Source of the DNA: Candidatus Aramenus sp. CH1
Lineage (GTDB): Archaea > Thermoproteota > Thermoprotei_A > Sulfolobales > Sulfolobaceae
NCBI GenBank assembly: GCA_022678445.1
Contig: JALBWU010000008.1
Location: 13,076 to 77,075, forward strand
Length of the DNA: 64,000 bases
Direction of reading: 5' to 3'
This document shows, piece by piece, positions 15,687-24,001 of the stretch; within the stretch, counting starts at the first letter, position 1; each line of letters begins with the position of its first letter. A program made the translations under genes and the position numbers. The notes beneath the pieces are model-generated. The model saw only the letters and a list, made by a program, of their open reading frames with translations. It searched no databases and had not been told where the DNA came from.

Positions 15687-15701
15687 AGACGACGTTATTT
15701 C

Positions 15702-16500
15702 CTGACCTCCTCCCCACCCTGCGAGGGTTCTGCATAGGTCTAAGGCGTTACTCCCCTTTAAGGGAGATACCCCGTGATGTGAAGAGAAAGGAAAGAGCCA
15801 AAGCGTCGACAATCTTCTTCACTCCTAGTTTCACGATGTTTAACGCTCCGCTAACGTCGCTGTGAAGCTTATGGCCAAGAGGACAGTTTACGACTCCCCT
15901 AGGCCTTCTCGTTACATTTGCGTTATGGTAAGCGCAGAAACGCGAGGTATTGTACTCAACAACTAGGTACGTCTTTACGCCGTGCTCGTGGAGTTTGTTC
16001 GCTAATGCGCCAACTTGCGAAAAGACCAAATTTGAAGTGAGCTTGTTACCCTTATCTTGAGAGATGAAGTAAGGATAGCCCAAGTAAACGGCGGAGACGC
16101 CAAGATCCCATAAGGACTTAGCCAAGTGAGATGCTAAAGTTCTGTAAATGAAGAAGCCTACGGTACAACTTTGCAAATACTCTTTCCCTCTCCATCAACA
16201 CTTCTTCCCTAGCTTCTTGTTCTTGAACCTTCTCAGCCTCGCTTTTCAACTTGTCTAGTTCGGCGATCTTTTTCTGAAAAATAGAAGTAATCGCTCTTAA
16301 CTGCTGAACCACGGTAAAATACAACAGTAAGCTCTCAACAACAACAGTAGCCAACGCGTTTATACCTAAGTCAATTGACGCAACCTTGTTACCTTTAGGC
16401 TTCTCAACTGAATCTCTCTTTCGCCGTGAATAACGAGAGAGTCCTTCATTGGCTTACCGCTTTTCTTTGGGGAAGCGTACTCCAGGAAATGTTTCTACAA
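15702..16500 (-). mobile_element. tnpB: Decayed IS200/IS605-family tnpB element
   Basis: Fragments KPKGNKVASIDLGIN (RuvC-I), VVEYNTSRFCAYH..VVNCPLGHKLHSDVSGALNI (Zn finger and RuvC-III), and right end ..AACCCTCGCAGGGTGGGGAGGAGGTCAG; frames broken; left boundary approximate. Confidence 0.8.
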
Positions 16501-16763
16501 AGTTCTCTAAGACCGCTCTACAAGGTCTATACGCCGCAATAAATTAGCATATTACGATACATAATACGTCCTTACGCTATTTAACAAAAGGGAATTTTAA
16601 TGCTCTTCTTGGAATAGGTACAACGCCTTAATTACTAAGGCACAGTTCTAACTAGTCGCTCTTTAGCTCATTTCTCACGCTGTGGAACATTTCTCGTATC
16701 ATGTATTGTATCGGTATTACCGGCACTATAGATTTAAACTCTAGACTACGTCTTTAAATTATA

Positions 16764-16812
16764 AGTTTCAGTTATCTCTCTAAATCCTTAATTTCGCCAA
16801 GGCATAACTTTC
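16764..16812 (+). promoter_or_regulatory. Three ANTTTC hexamers upstream of the PolB2 cassette (candidate UV/DNA-damage elements)
   Basis: AGTTTC 16764, AATTTC 16790, ACTTTC 16807; ANTTTC is the element described for UV-inducible Sulfolobus promoters. Confidence 0.45.
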
Positions 16813-16816
16813 AATT

Positions 16817-17056
16817 ATGGGTAGAACGCAATCGCCCTTTACCTCCTCAGTAGACAGGGAGGTGGAGAAGCTCGTTAGGCTTGCGAATAGGCTAGGAAAC
16901 CCTTGCTTTAAGGAGGTTGTGCTTGAGGCCTCAACTAGGGTTAGGGACTTTCAAAGCGCCCTTTACGACGAGGTCACAGATCCTCAGGAAGTCGTTCTCT
17001 TATCCCTCATTTCTGTTTTAGCTGAGGTGAAGTGTAACGGAAGGTTACGTCGTTGA
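16817..17056 (+). CDS. Small helical protein of PolB2 operons (arCOG07300-like)
   Basis: MGRTQSPF..EVEKLVRLANRL; position directly upstream of and overlapping polB2. Confidence 0.75.
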   Translation: MGRTQSPFTSSVDREVEKLVRLANRLGNPCFKEVVLEASTRVRDFQSALYDEVTDPQEVVLLSLISVLAEVKCNGRLRR

Positions 17057-18746
17057 CGCAATACCTACTTACAAGGGAGTTTACTTAGTTTTAGATGGCT
17101 TTAGAAAGGTAAAGGTTCCAACAACTTTTCCAATTTACGTGGAAACCCAAAACCCAGAGATAATTGCACAACACCCTTCAGTGGAGTACTACGAGGAGGA
17201 AGTTTGGAAGGACATTCACGAAAACGAAGTGAAGCTTTACAGGTTTGAGCTTACAGATTACAACGCTTACCTTTACATTAGGAAAAAGGCAAAGGTAGTG
17301 AACGAGTTGCCAACTGTGATGGCGCAAACACTTTACAGGCTTAAGGCTTATCCTTTTAGAAAAGTAAGGATTGAAGGAGGCAAAGTAGTGGAGGTTTTTC
17401 CGGAGGAGTTCCCGAAAATTACTTACGCCACTGTAACTACAGTTGATTGGTTTGGCCCTTCCTATTACGGCAAGGAGTTCATAGCCAACGTAAACGGAGT
17501 TGAAATAAAGGAAAAGGTTGGCGAGTTTGATTTAGCAGTTGACGTGGCGGAGTGCTTTGGAATTGCCTGCCACAAGGTAAAGAGCTCAGTCCTCATTAAG
17601 AGAAAAAGGGCTCCAGTGTCTGTTAAGGGACTAATCGAGTGGTCGTTAACTACGAAGACCCCAATAAGGGAACTGGAGGACTCCACAATAGGCAAGGCAC
17701 TCACTACAAACGAAGCTTGGGTTGCCTTGAAAAGAAAGGTAATAGTTCCTGGCGTTGTACCTAGAGTTGAGAAGTTAAGAACTGTTGAACAACTTAAGGA
17801 GGTAGACAAGGGAGGTTTAATTGTTTTCCCAAAGGTAGGGGCATACAACCAAGTTTACCAGCTAGACTTCTCCTCAATGTACCCCTCGCTCATAGTAAAG
17901 TACAACATATCCTTCGACACCGTAGATAAATGCGACGACGTGGTAACTGAAATAGGGCATAGCATCTGCATGAAAGAAAAGGGAATAGTGCCAGAAGCCT
18001 TAGAGTGGTTAGTAAAGAGAAAAGAAGAACTAAAAAGGATTGACGAGGAAAGGGCAGAGGCCATAAAGTGGATTTTAGTTGCGTCATTTGGCTATTTAGG
18101 TTATAGGAATTCAAAGTTTGGAAAAATAGAGGCTTACGAGCTTGTAACCTACTTTGCCAGGAAAACGCTCAGGGAGGCAATAGAGCTAGCTAAGAAATAC
18201 AAGGTTGAAGTATTGCACGGCATAATAGATTCGCTAATAGTTAAGGGAGATAACGTAAAGGAGTTCAGCGAGGCAATAGAGAGATTGACTGGACTGAAGA
18301 TGAAGGTAGAGGAAATGGACTGGGTAATCCTTTTCCCAAGGAGGGACGGAATGCCTTACCCAATGAGGTATTTAGCCAAAAGAAAGGACGGAGAAGTTAA
18401 GGCAAAGGGGTTAATAAGAAGTAACATGCCGAACGTGGTGAAGGAATTCCTAGAGAGAGCTGTAAAGGCAATGGGAAAGGCGAAAAAATTTGAGGAAATA
18501 GACCTTAACGAAATCAAGGAAATAAAGAAGGAGTTGGAGGAGAGGATAATAGAGGGAAAGGAAAGGGCAGACTTCGTAATTTGGGTAAAGGACAGGCCTT
18601 TAGTTAGGGGAGTTAGGGGATTTTACGACGCCAGGGAGGGCTACAAAGGCAGAGACGTTGGATACTACTTGGATTACTTGGAAAGGGAGTACGAGGTGTT
18701 GGTTAACGCTATCCACGGGATTCGAGCTGTTGGACAGGTTAATTGA
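17037..18746 (+). CDS. dpo2: Family B DNA polymerase PolB2/Dpo2, probable ACG start
   Basis: DFSSMYPS, KWILVASFGYLG, degenerate motif C HGIIDS; open frame from 17031 (after TGA at 17028) reading [ACG]EGYVVDAIP, first canonical start only at 17139. Confidence 0.88.
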   Translation, partial: TEGYVVDAIPTYKGVYLVLDGFRKVKVPTTFPIYVETQNPEIIAQHPSVEYYEEEVWKDIHENEVKLYRFELTDYNAYLYIRKKAKVVNELPTVMAQTLYRLKAYPFRKVRIEGGKVVEVFPEEFPKITYATVTTVDWFGPSYYGKEFIANVNGVEIKEKVGEFDLAVDVAECFGIACHKVKSSVLIKRKRAPVSVKGLIEWSLTTKTPIRELEDSTIGKALTTNEAWVALKRKVIVPGVVPRVEKLRTVEQLKEVDKGGLIVFPKVGAYNQVYQLDFSSMYPSLIVKYNISFDTVDKCDDVVTEIGHSICMKEKGIVPEALEWLVKRKEELKRIDEERAEAIKWILVASFGYLGYRNSKFGKIEAYELVTYFARKTLREAIELAKKYKVEVLHGIIDSLIVKGDNVKEFSEAIERLTGLKMKVEEMDWVILFPRRDGMPYPMRYLAKRKDGEVKAKGLIRSNMPNVVKEFLERAVKAMGKAKKFEEIDLNEIKEIKKELEERIIEGKERADFVIWVKDRPLVRGVRGFYDAREGYKGRDVGYYLDYLEREYEVLVNAIHGIRAVGQVN

Positions 18747-19284
18747 GAAAGACGACTTCGTCGAGTTTTATTCCCTAGATAGGGAGTTCCTCTACACTTT
18801 TTACCATAGGGTACTGGTAGTTTCAGCGCCAGTTAAGGTTGTTATTGTTGCAGAAAGGGGAGGACTAGATCCCTTGTTAATTGAGAGGTTTAGGAGGATA
18901 TTTGGGTGGAAGGGAGAAATTTACTTAAGGAGGGCATTCAAGGTTGAAGACGTTAAACCTACAATTGAGGCAATGGAGGAAGTCGAGGGAAATTTGGTCG
19001 TTGTTAATCCTTATCACCACAGAAGGAAATACGCAGAGATAGTATCAGCTTTGAGGAAAAGCGAAGGAAGGAAATTCCTCTTTAGCTTCATGGACAGGGA
19101 GAAGGAAGGATCTATTTTTGGTACCCACAGCGCTCACGCTATCATTAAACTAGAGCCTGGAACAAGGGGATTTAGAGCAGTGCTAAAGAAAAGCGTAACT
19201 TACAGTGAAATTGATATTCCCTTTGGCTTCTGGGAAATTTACGGAAAAAGTGAGGGAGAAGGGTTGATAAAATGGATGATATGA
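18706..19284 (+). CDS. Degenerate RadA/RecA-like protein of PolB2 operons, probable ACG start
   Basis: [ACG]LSTGFELLDRLI resembles the RecA-like N-terminus; no intact Walker A; GAGGTG at 18693-18698. Confidence 0.7.
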   Translation, partial: TLSTGFELLDRLIEKDDFVEFYSLDREFLYTFYHRVLVVSAPVKVVIVAERGGLDPLLIERFRRIFGWKGEIYLRRAFKVEDVKPTIEAMEEVEGNLVVVNPYHHRRKYAEIVSALRKSEGRKFLFSFMDREKEGSIFGTHSAHAIIKLEPGTRGFRAVLKKSVTYSEIDIPFGFWEIYGKSEGEGLIKWMI

Positions 19285-19368
19285 AGGAAATTTCACTGCT
19301 TGAGTTTTTATCCATTATCTGAATTAAATCCGCCAAATTATTTTAAATACATGACGTACATAATCTTA

Positions 19369-20272
19369 ATGATTCAGATAGAACACGTATCCAAGACGTT
19401 CGGCAGGTTCAAAGCTCTAGATGACGTGACCTTTGAAGTTCCGGATGGGCAAATAACAGCCTACGTTGGCCTAAACGGAGCTGGGAAAACAACTACCATG
19501 AGGATAGTTGCTGGGGTAATTTACCCAGATTCCGGAGACGTTAAAGTAGAAGGGCATAGCGTCGTAAGGGAAAAGGTAGAGGCCTCTAAAAACTTGGCTT
19601 GGGTTCCAGAGTTTCCAATTTTCGAGATGGAAATGAAGGCAATTGATTATTTCGTTTACATTGCTGGCTACATGGGGTACTCCAACTTCAGAAGCCAAAA
19701 AGTTAGGAAAAGAGCTCTTGGCTGAAGTTGGATTAGAGGGAATGGAAAACAGAAAGCTCAAGGACTATTCGCAAGGTATGAAGAAGAGATTTGCCTTAGC
19801 CCTTTTAATGATTTCTAACCCAAAGAACTACCTCTTTGACGAAGTTTTAAATGGTCTAGACCCTCAAGGAATAATGTTCTTTAGGGATTTGGCGTTAAAG
19901 CTGAAGAAGGAAGGAAAAGCTGTCCTCTTTTCTTCCCACATACTTTCTGAGGTTGAAAACCTCACAGACAAGGTTGTTTTCATCCACAAGGGAAGGATAG
20001 TTAGGGTAATGAGCATGGACGAGATAAGGAAATCCGCTACACCTAGCCTCTTTATAAGAGTAGAAAATCCAGACAAGGAATTGGTTGACGTTCTCTCAAG
20101 TTACGGTAGCGTTGAACAAAACGGTAACTTAATCTTTGTGAGGAACTTCAAGGGGGATGTAGCTGAAGTCAACTCTAAGCTGTCCCAGAAATACAAGTTA
20201 ATGGAAATAAGGACTGAGTACGCCTCTCTAGAACAAGTGTTCTTCCAGATCATTCAAGGTGAGCAAGAATGA
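19369..20272 (+). pseudogene. ABC transporter ATP-binding protein with +1 frameshift
   Basis: GLNGAGKTT in one frame; YSQGMKKR, LFDEVLNGLD and SSH in another; one extra base near 19684. Confidence 0.85.
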
Positions 20273-21775
20273 GGCCCCTTTTTACACGATTTTAAGAGGT
20301 CATTTCTTAGACTTTCAACCCTGCTGTTATTAGCGCTGTTCATATTAGCAGGCGTGGGTTTAACTACACTAGTTAGCTCTAACCTTAGCTCTTTGACTCC
20401 CTTTAAGTACTCGTACATAGGCTACGCGGTTATTAACGGCACTGATCTACAAATAGCAGGACTTGGAATAGGTACTTCAGGAAACCCGCAGCAGGGATTA
20501 AATGTGACGCTAGGAGTTAGCATTGGTAATGAAATAAAGTACTTCTCCACTATTACAAACTCCTCTGGTATGTTCGCACTAAAGGTAGAAGGAGCCTTGG
20601 CCCCTAACGTTACTTTACAGTTTTCAGAAGCTAACGGTAAGAAGGGGGAAATAATATTGATTAACCCAAACCAGGATTCTATTCCTTTGATTCAGGCAGC
20701 GTGGAACACAACCTTTGAATATGCTTCCCCATACACTCTATGTTCTAGTTATAACACTCCAAGCTTCGCTAATTACGAACTCCCTAGCCAAATTTCCGGG
20801 ATACCGGTGACATATTATCCCAACGGAACGTTAAAGGTGTTCGTAGCCTCTACAGTCTCAGGAAAACTTTACTATAACGTTACGGCTTCGAGTCCTAACA
20901 ATGCTGGCACAAGTGGTTCGGCTCAATCACTCCAGGAGTCAAAATACGCGGGTTACCTTACCCATGGAACACATGTTATCTTACTAGACGTAGGAAAGCT
21001 CGAAAATTTCCCTCCAACGCTCTACGAGCTAAAGCTCAATTTAACTAGTAGTAACCATCAAAATTCAGTAGAAATACCCTTCAATACCGAGTCTAGAGCG
21101 TTTTCCTTGAGTTCACAAGGAATTATAGACCAATTATCAGCGGGAACTTTTGCTACGTTTTTCCCTATAATATTTCTTTATTTGGGTTATGGGCTATTAG
21201 CTAAACCTAAGGATCAAGGAGCTTTGGACTTCCTTCTTTCTAGGCCAGTAACTAGAGGAAGTGTATTTGTGAGTAGATACTTGGGAGGAGTTATGACGGC
21301 AATTGTTAGCTCGGCTTTGTTTGTTCTATCATTGTCAATACCTACAATAGCGTTATTAGGCGTGCCAGTACCAGCACTTGACGCTTTATTATTATTTATG
21401 GGCCTTACGTCAAGCCTAACAGCGTTTTATTCCATTATGGTTATGATAGCGAGCCTAACAAAAAGCTCTGGAAAGTACTTAGGGATCGCCCTCTTTACGT
21501 TTTTCTTCTTCCTCTTTATAGAAACACTAATAGCCACCATCCTACTGCTTAAGGGAATAAACTTTGTTAGTTATCTTCCATACTTGAATTATAATTTACC
21601 GTTGGACACTGTAACCAATGCTATTTCCTCGTCTAGTGGTACGTCTCAATTCTACGCTAACGTGCCACTAGAGATAGTTGGTTCAATATTGTGGATAGCA
21701 GTGCCAACAATGATAGCATACTTAGCCTTTACGGAGTACTTTAAGTGGAGAAAACTAGTTTCAAGCTCAAGATAA
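20269..21775 (+). pseudogene. ABC-2 type permease with +1 frameshift near the start
   Basis: ATG at 20269 overlaps the ATPase stop (ATGA); MRPL then LHDFKRSFLR in the next frame across T5 at 20279-20283; LLSRPVTRGSVFVSRYLG motif. Confidence 0.8.
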
Positions 21776-21806
21776 ACCTTTTTTTATTACTTACTTTTTG
21801 TAAGAT

Positions 21807-23276
21807 GTGAAGTTCCTCAGAGAGTCAACAGGATTGATAAGGGAAATGGGTCCTCTAGACGCTTTTGCCCTTAACTTCTCTTTCATAGGCCCAGCTGCTG
21901 GAATTTCTTACCCTCTTTTCGTTGCCTCATTTTTGCCCGGAGCCAATTGGATTCTAGCGCTATTAATTGGAGCTCTTCTTTCCCTACCTCTTCTCTTCAA
22001 CTACTATTTCCTTTCGCTAAAGTTACCTAGATCTTCTTCTGACTACATTTTCGTTTCAAGGACTTTAGGAGGCATGATGGGAGTAATTTTGGCTATGTCA
22101 TTAATAGTTTCTTTTGCCATGGGTTTCCCAGTTCTGGCTGAGCTTGAAGTTATCATGGTTCTATCCCCAACAATGCAGTTGTTGGGCTATTCCCTTCGCG
22201 ATCCTAACTTAATTTTCATAGGAAATGAATTGACAGACAACGTGAACTACTTAACCTTGGCAACGACGTTGATTATAATTATAGCTTTCCTCATTAGCTC
22301 AAACTCAAAGTGGTTCTTCAAGACATTTAGGTACCTAACTTTCCTGCAAATTATTGGCACTATTGTAATGGTTCTTGGCATGGTAGCCCTAAAATCGGCG
22401 TTTTCGCCCTATTATCAACCGTCGCCTCCTAAGTTTAGTTTCACCGAAACCTTCCTCCTCTCTTCTGTCTTTGTGCTATCCATGTACGCCTTCGTTAACG
22501 CTCCTGCTTTCTTTGCAGGAGAAGCTAGAAAGCCAAGGAAAAGCTTTGCTTTAGGTTACTTTGCCTCCTACGCTGTTGCTACCGCCTTCTCCTTGGCATT
22601 AATCTTGGCTTTGGAGTACAGCATTGGCGTAGGAGGTTTCATTTCTGTCTCTACCGAGAGATGGAACTTGCCTATCTCAACTTCCTCCCTTCTATCCTTT
22701 GGTTCACTTCCTTTCCTTGATAGCTTGCCTTTACTCCTTTTAGTTATTGCGTCTGGTCTCACGTGGTATTTGCTTTACGCTATGATAAACGTTGGCGCCT
22801 CCTCTAGGTTCCTTTTTTCTTTAGCTTTTGACAGGGTACTCCCCTCCTTCTTGGGAGAAATAAAAAGGGGAATTCCAGTCAACGCGTTAATCTTCTCCCT
22901 TTCGCTTTCCCTATTCTTTGAGCTCATAGAGGTTTACTTGGGCTACTCTGTCAGCTTCGCTGTTGACGGGCTTTGGTTCCTGACGTGGAACTATCTCCTA
23001 GTGTCGTTGGCCTCTGCCATCACCGTGAGGAAGGACTTAAAGCTGGGCGTCTCCGGCCTTCTGTCCAGCGTCTCACTCGCCTTAACCGCCTTTATTGCAG
23101 TATTCTACGGGTTAAAGTACGCCAACGTTATCTTCTCTGGGGACGTGTACTTTGACTTATTAACTATTGTCATACCTCCCCTAGCCGGTTTGACTACCTA
23201 CTTGACAGCCAAGCGTGTGAGAAAGGTGCAGGGAATAGACCTTGACTCGACGTTCAGGGAGATACCGCCTGAGTAG
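21807..23276 (+). CDS. APC family amino acid permease
   Basis: FLRESTGLIRE, PRSSSDYIFVSR, SRFLFSLAFDRVLP, FREIPPE terminus. Confidence 0.85.
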   Translation: MKFLRESTGLIREMGPLDAFALNFSFIGPAAGISYPLFVASFLPGANWILALLIGALLSLPLLFNYYFLSLKLPRSSSDYIFVSRTLGGMMGVILAMSLIVSFAMGFPVLAELEVIMVLSPTMQLLGYSLRDPNLIFIGNELTDNVNYLTLATTLIIIIAFLISSNSKWFFKTFRYLTFLQIIGTIVMVLGMVALKSAFSPYYQPSPPKFSFTETFLLSSVFVLSMYAFVNAPAFFAGEARKPRKSFALGYFASYAVATAFSLALILALEYSIGVGGFISVSTERWNLPISTSSLLSFGSLPFLDSLPLLLLVIASGLTWYLLYAMINVGASSRFLFSLAFDRVLPSFLGEIKRGIPVNALIFSLSLSLFFELIEVYLGYSVSFAVDGLWFLTWNYLLVSLASAITVRKDLKLGVSGLLSSVSLALTAFIAVFYGLKYANVIFSGDVYFDLLTIVIPPLAGLTTYLTAKRVRKVQGIDLDSTFREIPPE

Positions 23277-23287
23277 TGCGCGTGAGG

Positions 23288-24001
23288 CTATTTTAACTCG
23301 GTCATCAACCTCGCTACGACGCTCTCTATTGACTCGTCCTCCCTGCCCATTGCCTTCAACTGCTGTATAGATCCCTGCCACACCAAGGAGCCATTGGATA
23401 TCATAAGCACGTAATCGGTGAGTCTGAGGGCTATGGACATTATGTGGGTGGAAATGAGGAATGTGGAGTCCATTTTCTTGAGCAGTGAGATCACCATCTC
23501 TTGCGTTGGGATGTCTAAGTAATTGAGGGGCTCGTCAAGTAGGAGGACCTTGGGGTTGTGCATTATTGCCAAGGCTATTGCCAACTTCTGCTGGTTTCCC
23601 CTTGATAACTTGCCCGCTAAGACCCCCTGGTACTGCTCCAGCCCCAGTAAGTGTGTCATCCTCTCCGCTACCTCCCTTGGATTTTCAAGTTCCCTTAAGG
23701 TGGCTATGTACTCGAGGTTCTCCCTAACCGTCAAGTTCCTGTAAGGCATGGGGTCCTCAGGCAAGTAGCCCAAGAGCCTCTTTGCCCCTGTGGAGTCTGG
23801 GGGATAGCCCATGACCTTGACCTCCCCTACGTCCGGTTTCATTAATCCTGAGAGTATCTTCATTGTTGTAGACTTCCCGGCACCGTTAGGCCCTAAGAGC
23901 GCGTACTTCCCCCCACAGGGCACAGTAAAGCTCAAGTTATTTAAAGCCAAGAAGCTACCGTAACGCTTCACAACGTTTCTCGCTTCAATACAATACTCCA
24001 T
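23288..24001 (-). CDS. ABC transporter ATP-binding protein
   Basis: [25 protein letters not shown] motifs. Confidence 0.9.

Follow-up and report, generated by a model that had tools for sequence, protein, structure and literature searches.

Shine-Dalgarno-led ACG codons as probable weak start codons of PolB2 and iRadA in the mutasome operon of a Sulfolobaceae archaeon

The archaeal DNA polymerase PolB2 (Dpo2) is encoded in a damage-related operon that has been described several times (Timinskas et al. 2025, PMC11791011; Makarova et al. 2014, PMC4104785; PMC6061795). In the most recent of these descriptions, the genes PPB2, PolB2 and iRadA form a "mutasome" operon, PPB2 is characterized by an MGRT N-terminal arm, and the products are predicted to assemble as a complex of 3 PPB2 : 1 PolB2 : 1 iRadA (PMC11791011). 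Here we report on such an operon in a 64,000-nucleotide (nt) stretch of contig JALBWU010000008.1 from Candidatus Aramenus sp. CH1 (Sulfolobaceae), referred to below as the window. Reading of the sequence and its translations shows three overlapping same-strand genes at positions 16817-19284, in the order PPB2-PolB2-iRadA, with the gene order and gene sizes of the described operons. Other common features are an MGRT arm on PPB2, a DK loop and an IID motif in PolB2, and an iRadA without a Walker A motif; a sequence resembling the DNA damage-responsive element (DDRE) of the ANTTTC type lies upstream. The difference lies in the starts of the two downstream genes, as PolB2 would begin with ACG where the others have ATG, GTG or TTG, and iRadA would begin with ACG where an S. 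acidocaldarius-like clade has CTG. With a probability of roughly two in three (0.68), we regard both ACGs as working but weak initiation codons, and as one instance of a clade-wide use of near-cognate starts led by a Shine-Dalgarno (SD) sequence. ACG is thus probably a general weak start codon in this genome and not a brake built for PolB2.

The identity of the cassette follows from several features. PolB2 matches Pfam PF00136 (DNA_pol_B) at 7e-13, is about 60-70% identical to Sulfolobaceae proteins labelled DNA polymerase II, and carries the motifs DFSSMYPS, VDKGG (the DK loop, at residue 256) and a degenerate DxD that reads IID (residues 396-398). Of 21 related loci, 20 have a PPB2 orthologue directly ahead of PolB2. 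Homologues of iRadA are 187-204 amino acids (aa) long and always adjoin PolB2, one of them being named as having a KaiC-like domain; a motif search found no Walker A motif (GxxxxGK[ST]) in iRadA, and no Pfam match was obtained for it, its assignment to the RadA fold resting on PMC11791011. Judged by the N-terminal MGRT of PPB2, by DK loop and IID in PolB2 and by a predicted inactive iRadA, the cassette is the known PolB2 mutasome operon, in keeping with a first-pass annotation of this DNA, made from the letters alone, which had called the arrangement of a small gene, polB2 and a radA-like gene a known one.

At the junction of PPB2 and PolB2, the polymerase frame opens after a TGA (17028-30) and reads AGT GTA ACG (17037-39), so that a stop codon stands two codons upstream of the ACG. 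No ATG, GTG or TTG occurs in this frame for 34 codons from the ACG, the first canonical codon being the GTG at 17139. The C of the ACG is the third base of an asparagine codon (AAC, 17036-38) in PPB2, and the C of the second ACG (18706) is likewise the third base of an AAC codon (18705-07) in PolB2. The first-pass annotation had located both ACGs here, had noted that each C is silent in the overlapping gene and had counted open reading frames (ORFs) of 569 and 192 codons, and our own reading of the sequence agrees. It had also described a GAGGTG SD followed by a spacer of 6-7 nt; the SD boxes are present, and the spacer is exactly 7 nt after GGTG at both junctions.

The homology of the start position was read directly from 25 orthologous loci (21 from a genome search and 4 further ones). 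At the position of the PolB2 ACG, 16 of the 21 have ATG or GTG and all four further loci have ATG, which bears out the earlier expectation of an ATG at this site. In the other five of the 21 (L007, L009, L018, L019 and L016), a canonical start lies 1-2 codons away, that of L016 being a TTG two codons downstream, and every other PolB2 orthologue examined starts with ATG, GTG or TTG. The closest operon, from a genome of the same genus (G003; 79.6% aa identity in PolB2), starts PolB2 with GTG. Compared with this relative, the 33 codons from the ACG to the GTG at 17139 show nonsynonymous and synonymous differences (pN and pS) of 0.114 and 0.755, and the remainder of PolB2 shows 0.116 and 0.735. 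The orthologue alignment contains five invariant columns within residues 1-34, and an AlphaFold model of PolB2 (mean predicted local distance difference test score, pLDDT, 89.9) places four beta-strands in residues 2-36 at pLDDT 96-97. As the head of PolB2 is constrained and contains both invariant residues and predicted strands, translation would therefore begin at or beside the ACG.

Existing annotations of PolB2 conflict with this position and with one another, IMG and Logan giving 535 aa from the GTG at 17139 and NCBI giving 561 aa from an ATA at 17061. ACG is absent from the start list of NCBI table 11, and annotation pipelines therefore cannot pick it, with truncation of both PolB2 and iRadA as the result. 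The ACGs themselves are present in the product of a second assembler, a Logan contig from SRR18166207 that is 100% identical over 5269 nt, both ACGs included.

At the junction of PolB2 and iRadA, the picture among relatives is different. In a gap-free alignment, the ACG at 18706 is matched by CTG in the five nearest lineages (L002, L004, L005, L033 and L035), by GTG in L012 and by ATG in L013; in the remaining relatives, iRadA has GTG, ATG or TTG at or near the aligned codon, 1-4 codons ahead of a conserved TGF motif. In the five CTG lineages, the sequence runs GAGGTGA or AAGGTGA, 6 nt, then CTG, which is again GGTG plus 7 nt, and no canonical iRadA start occurs in them over 20-91 codons. NCBI annotates an S. 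acidocaldarius SUSAZ protein, matched by one of the five lineages, from that very CTG. Among database homologues, 9 of 19 have their annotated methionine at the position of the ACG. Residue G5 of iRadA is invariant and F6 nearly so, and both lie upstream of the TTG at 18730 from which databases take iRadA (184 aa). This conserved N-terminal coding ahead of a canonical start holds for the TTG at 18730 only, as another in-frame TTG, at 18658, lies upstream and is not conserved. In the S. acidocaldarius-like clade, gene callers give a shortened iRadA of 104-146 aa, or NCBI uses the CTG.

The expectation that homology would predict ATG at iRadA as it does at PolB2 was therefore not borne out. As the nearest relatives already have CTG at iRadA, a parallel change from ATG to ACG did not take place at both junctions. 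Comparison of start codons among relatives, which the first-pass annotation had suggested as a check, thus showed canonical starts for PolB2 and CTG in part of the loci for iRadA, and the rate of PolB2 is not raised in the genome under study (G000) compared with G003.

In order to place the two ACGs within the genome as a whole, a scan was made for long ORFs whose head lacks a canonical start, has coding-like codon usage and is preceded by an SD with a non-canonical codon behind it. Of the 19 such codons with a spacing of exactly 7 nt, 10 were one mismatch from ATG, where about 2.3 were expected (P=2e-5). Conversely, 10 of the 11 near-cognate candidates lay at exactly 7 nt, compared with 29% of canonical SD-led starts (P=3e-5), and 7 nt is the modal SD spacing of canonical starts too. 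For NurA, PurQ and ThiDN (ACG), FEN1 (ATA) and fibrillarin (ATT), the codon falls at position 1-2 of a curated NCBIfam profile. In all, there are about five solid ACG starts in roughly 2000 genes.

Conservation of these starts was followed in individual orthologues, using a sister species (G002), the same-genus G003 and a genome from another genus (G014) in addition to G000. ACG is observed for NurA in G000 and G002, for PurQ in all four genomes, and for ThiDN in G000, G002 and G003, and fibrillarin has ATT or ATC in G000, G002 and G003. FEN1 (G000 C3:31044-32096, minus strand) has its ATA 7 nt after AGGTGA or GGGTGA, with ATA or ATC in 6 of 6 genomes (ATC in G001), and no canonical FEN1 start is available in these six, one of which matches S. 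acidocaldarius. Selection on the genes is also observed, as near-cognate-headed genes compared between G000 and G002 have ratios of nonsynonymous to synonymous rates (dN/dS) of 0.02-0.13 at dS 0.19-0.37. The starts of NurA, PurQ and ThiDN are thus kept under low dN/dS, so that genes headed by ACG evidently remain functional as species diverge. One initiator tRNA, with anticodon CAT, is present in the genome. A special initiator tRNA for ACG was considered and rejected, because the sole anticodon arm of the initiator type that was detected is the one with CAT; no initiator-like arm with CGT or any other anticodon was seen in the genome, the aragorn listing being incomplete on account of tRNA introns. 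A literature search on non-canonical and ACG starts in Sulfolobus and archaea found no paper on SD-anchored ACG initiation in archaea.

Base composition offers a route to such codons. The fraction of G and C at third codon positions (GC3) is 0.51-0.74 in the clade of G000, G002 and G003, as against 0.18-0.45 in other genera, and a change from ATG to ACG is favoured because T>C runs along this GC shift. At both junctions, T>C leaves the asparagine of the overlapping upstream gene unchanged (AAT>AAC). The SD of PolB2, at 8 nt, is the longest anti-SD match of 26 orthologous junctions. Among the PolB2 orthologues, SD length is mostly 3-5 nt with ATG and mostly 5-7 nt with GTG or TTG. As SD length grows while the start codon weakens, the series looks like compensation that keeps PolB2 expressed, and the long SD of PolB2 suggests compensation for a weak start, not throttling or silencing.

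Under the reading that we favour, PPB2 would start at AUG, probably on a leaderless transcript inducible by DNA damage, and PolB2 and iRadA, which overlap the preceding gene, would depend on their SD for initiation. The strong duplex between GAGGTG and the anti-SD may set the codon 7 nt downstream into the P site, where the ordinary initiator tRNA (anticodon CAU) could pair with ACG despite the mismatch at the middle base. In this GC-shifted clade, ACG, AUA, AUU or AUC, and CUG would serve as starts of a few SD-led genes, with the spacing fixed at 7 nt, and a change from ATG to ACG would be tolerated, perhaps with compensation by a longer SD. Less PolB2 and iRadA than PPB2 would likely be made, which fits the predicted 3:1:1 complex.

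Several alternatives were weighed against this reading. The first-pass annotation had proposed a translational throttle, in which the ACGs were selected to hold a potentially mutagenic polymerase module low or to set the PPB2:PolB2:iRadA ratio. The design is shared by NurA, PurQ, ThiDN, FEN1 and fibrillarin, and its restriction to a mutagenic polymerase thus does not stand. While two ACG starts in adjacent cistrons are conspicuous beside the five or so in the genome, and the nucleases NurA and FEN1 are members of the near-cognate set, PurQ, ThiDN and fibrillarin are unrelated to mutagenesis; the near-cognate CTG on iRadA in five related lineages and the predicted 3:1:1 complex (PMC11791011) speak for a throttle, but the uniformly canonical starts of all other PolB2 orthologues, the strength of the PolB2 SD and a GC-biased drift that accounts for T>C speak against it. 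A throttle specific to the mutasome is not needed to explain the data, and we consider it unlikely. The alternative named by the first-pass annotation itself was independent T-to-C decay, in which the operon is being lost, T>C has struck both starts, and little or no PolB2 and iRadA is made. It was rightly given the lesser place there, and we think it more unlikely still. All 840 codons of PPB2, PolB2 and iRadA are intact, the SD boxes are perfect and optimally spaced, and PolB2 shows no rate acceleration in G000 compared with G003, a pair in which dS is saturated. If knock-out alone is modelled, the chance that the earliest inactivating substitution in each of the two genes strikes its start codon is about 0.002, and the chance that both are ATG>ACG is about 4e-5. 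Sister species G002 does retain only a degraded 3' remnant of iRadA, the operon does lie in an AT-richer block beside an insertion sequence (IS)-like repeat, and one other ACG-headed gene (C21:112710) looks truncated; against this, the ACG starts of NurA, PurQ and ThiDN persist at dN/dS about 0.1.

Use of the canonical or database starts instead, that is, the GTG at 17139 or the ATA at 17061 for PolB2 and the TTG at 18730 or at 18658 (208 aa) for iRadA, would agree with existing calls but is improbable, as all four codons lack an SD. The GTG would remove four confident beta-strands and five invariant residues, the ATA would cut the first strand and the invariant D7, and the TTG at 18730 would remove G5 and F6; the extension from 18658 is an alternative frame of PolB2 that is closed by TGA in the nearest relatives. 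Equally improbable is a dedicated handling of ACG in this clade, by C-to-U editing of the mRNA or by a lineage-specific loosening of start-codon proofreading by aIF1/aIF2, that would co-regulate, at initiation, an SD-led regulon including the PolB2 mutasome, NurA and FEN1. Editing on its own, turning ACG into AUG in the mRNA as at plant organelle start codons, is very improbable: that ACG and not other threonine codons recurs at starts would suit it, although nothing points to it directly, and the SD plus 7-nt context also precedes ATA, ATT, ATC and CTG, which are beyond repair by C-to-U. The ACG sites also have no common sequence context other than the SD, and to our knowledge no C-to-U editing of mRNA is described in archaea. 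Scarcely credible is a programmed +1 frameshift that joins PPB2 with PolB2, and PolB2 with iRadA, as fusion proteins. The frame does move by +1 at each junction, rare CGT CGT codons stand ahead of the PPB2 stop, and fusions of mutasome components occur elsewhere (PMC11791011), but among relatives that share these overlaps the aligned codon is a canonical start in its own right, the frames at junction 2 are related differently in more distant relatives, there is no conserved slippery motif, and initiation accounts for the SD plus 7-nt geometry. An error of sequencing or assembly, with T as the true base, is no more credible; although both ACGs are seen in one organism only, two identical specific errors would be required, the independent assembly from SRR18166207 shows the same bases, and ACG starts of other genes recur in the separate genomes G002, G003 and G014.

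A number of points nevertheless weigh against our preferred reading. Neither the PolB2 nor the iRadA ACG is found in any close relative, G003 having GTG at PolB2 and its contig ending before junction 2. The operon is dispensable, as its loss from sister species G002 shows: contig C21 of that genome starts (positions 1-60) inside a degraded 3' end of iRadA (corresponding to window 19257-19284), with TGG changed to TGA, and the operon is otherwise missing. This loss probably took place at a repeat or IS boundary. The truncated appearance of the ACG-headed gene at C21:112710 indicates that an ACG start may accompany decay. For iRadA, the sequence is still compatible with a start at the in-frame TTG 18658 or 18730. 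In an in vitro system from Sulfolobus (Saccharolobus) solfataricus, as cited in PMC6237735, aIF1 is reported to discriminate against non-canonical starts. Finally, initiation at ACG, its efficiency and any effect on stoichiometry are what we infer from sequence.

The coordinates of the operon features are collected in Table 1. The DDRE-like element agrees with the Orc1-2 DDRE consensus AATAGTTTCRGWDTACTCWS in 9 of the 11 bases after its AGTTTC core. The consensus and its regulation by Orc1-2 have been described, with a reported position range of -23 to -55 (PMC6061795), and the element would be at the right distance for damage-responsive control by Orc1-2. PPB2 has no SD and is probably leaderless. 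The overlap of PolB2 and iRadA amounts to 41 nt (18706-18746); displacement of the PolB2 stop in this clade takes the C-terminus 29-41 nt into iRadA, compared with overlaps of 4-13 nt in other genera, and the last 7 residues of PolB2 are predicted to be disordered (pLDDT below 50).

Table 1. Positions of the operon features in the window, with proposed initiation codons
Feature	Position	Strand	Remarks
DDRE-like promoter element	16760..16782	+	AGTTTC core 16764-16769, -53 to -48 from PPB2 ATG
PPB2 (arCOG07300)	16817..17056	+	79 aa, ATG start, N-terminus MGRTQSPF
PolB2 SD TGAGGTGA	17023..17030	+	contains TGA 17028-30, an in-frame stop ahead of PolB2
PolB2 proposed initiation codon ACG	17037..17039	+	7 nt after GGTG
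PolB2 (Dpo2)	17037..18746	+	569 codons plus stop; stop codon 18744-46
iRadA SD GAGGTG	18693..18698	+	inside PolB2 3' end
iRadA proposed initiation codon ACG	18706..18708	+	7 nt after GAGGTG
iRadA (catalytically inactive RadA/KaiC-like PolB2 partner)	18706..19284	+	192 codons plus stop (19282-84)

The surroundings of the operon are distinct in composition. Window 16001-24000, which holds the operon and downstream ABC-transporter genes, has a GC content of 0.42-0.44, compared with 0.50-0.56 in the flanks, and the transporter genes are common to G002 at 91% nt identity. Directly upstream of the operon, window 15698-16469 is an IS-like repeat with many copies in G002 at 71-79% identity (C2, C3, C6, C17 and C38), which an earlier sequence note had labelled a dead IS605.

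Further candidates were noted elsewhere in the genome. In the isoleucyl-tRNA synthetase gene (IleRS; G000 C21:71950-75099, plus strand), the stretch that runs from the preceding stop to 66 codons inside the gene is free of ATG, GTG and TTG, and the sole SD-spaced codon is TTA (GGTG, 7 nt, TTA TCY), the same in 6 of 6 Sulfolobaceae genomes examined. This suggests that an essential gene may have a conserved UUA start, two mismatches from AUG. The gene for an ABC-2-like membrane protein (G000 C21:112710-113144, plus strand) has ACG at GAGGTG plus 7 nt, with GTG in G012 and ATG in G001; its ORF of 145 codons compares with about 240 in relatives, the gene is missing from G002 and G003, and it may thus be in decay. 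SD-spaced candidates were also seen at an ATP-grasp (LysX/RimK-like) gene (ATA; G000 C1:124715, plus strand) and a ParA/MinD-like ATPase (ATT; G000 C1:63330-64094, minus strand), and an ATA at 6 nt was seen at a putative SpoU/TrmL-type tRNA methyltransferase-like gene (G000 C5:48257, plus strand), identified from its N-terminal sequence only.

The operon is already known, and the interest of the proposed SD-anchored ACG initiation lies mostly in the genome-wide rule and not in PolB2 itself. If the preferred reading is true, ACG is a Sulfolobaceae start codon outside table 11, as are ATA, ATT, ATC, CTG and possibly TTA (IleRS), and annotation pipelines truncate PolB2, iRadA, NurA, PurQ and ThiDN in this clade, all three existing PolB2 calls being wrong. 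The strict 7-nt spacing, together with an inverse relation of SD length to start strength, would give a simple rule for how the eukaryote-like archaeal ribosome accepts near-cognate codons, and weak downstream starts could help to set the predicted 3:1:1 ratio of the mutasome. The same design is found in genomes matching the genetically tractable Sulfolobus acidocaldarius, with CTG on iRadA and ATA on FEN1.

Near-cognate initiation is known in eukaryotes and their viruses, where the ACG starts of adeno-associated virus VP2 and of the Sendai virus C' protein are used by the normal initiator tRNA with reduced output. That initiation relies on scanning and Kozak context, whereas the candidates described here lie inside operons and would rely on an SD duplex at a fixed spacing of 7 nt. 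In plant organelles, a genomic ACG is edited to AUG at the position of the start methionine. An ACG at this position is the common element with the present locus, but the co-occurring ATA, ATT and CTG could not be fixed by C-to-U changes, and archaea are not known to have editing machinery of this kind. In E. coli, ACG is a very weak start codon. In bacteria, the AUU of infC and the measurements of all 64 codons in E. coli (bioRxiv 10.1101/063800) likewise concern SD-led codons one mismatch from AUG; the difference is that ACG here is found repeatedly at conserved genes within a clade of hyperthermophiles and is retained from one species to another.

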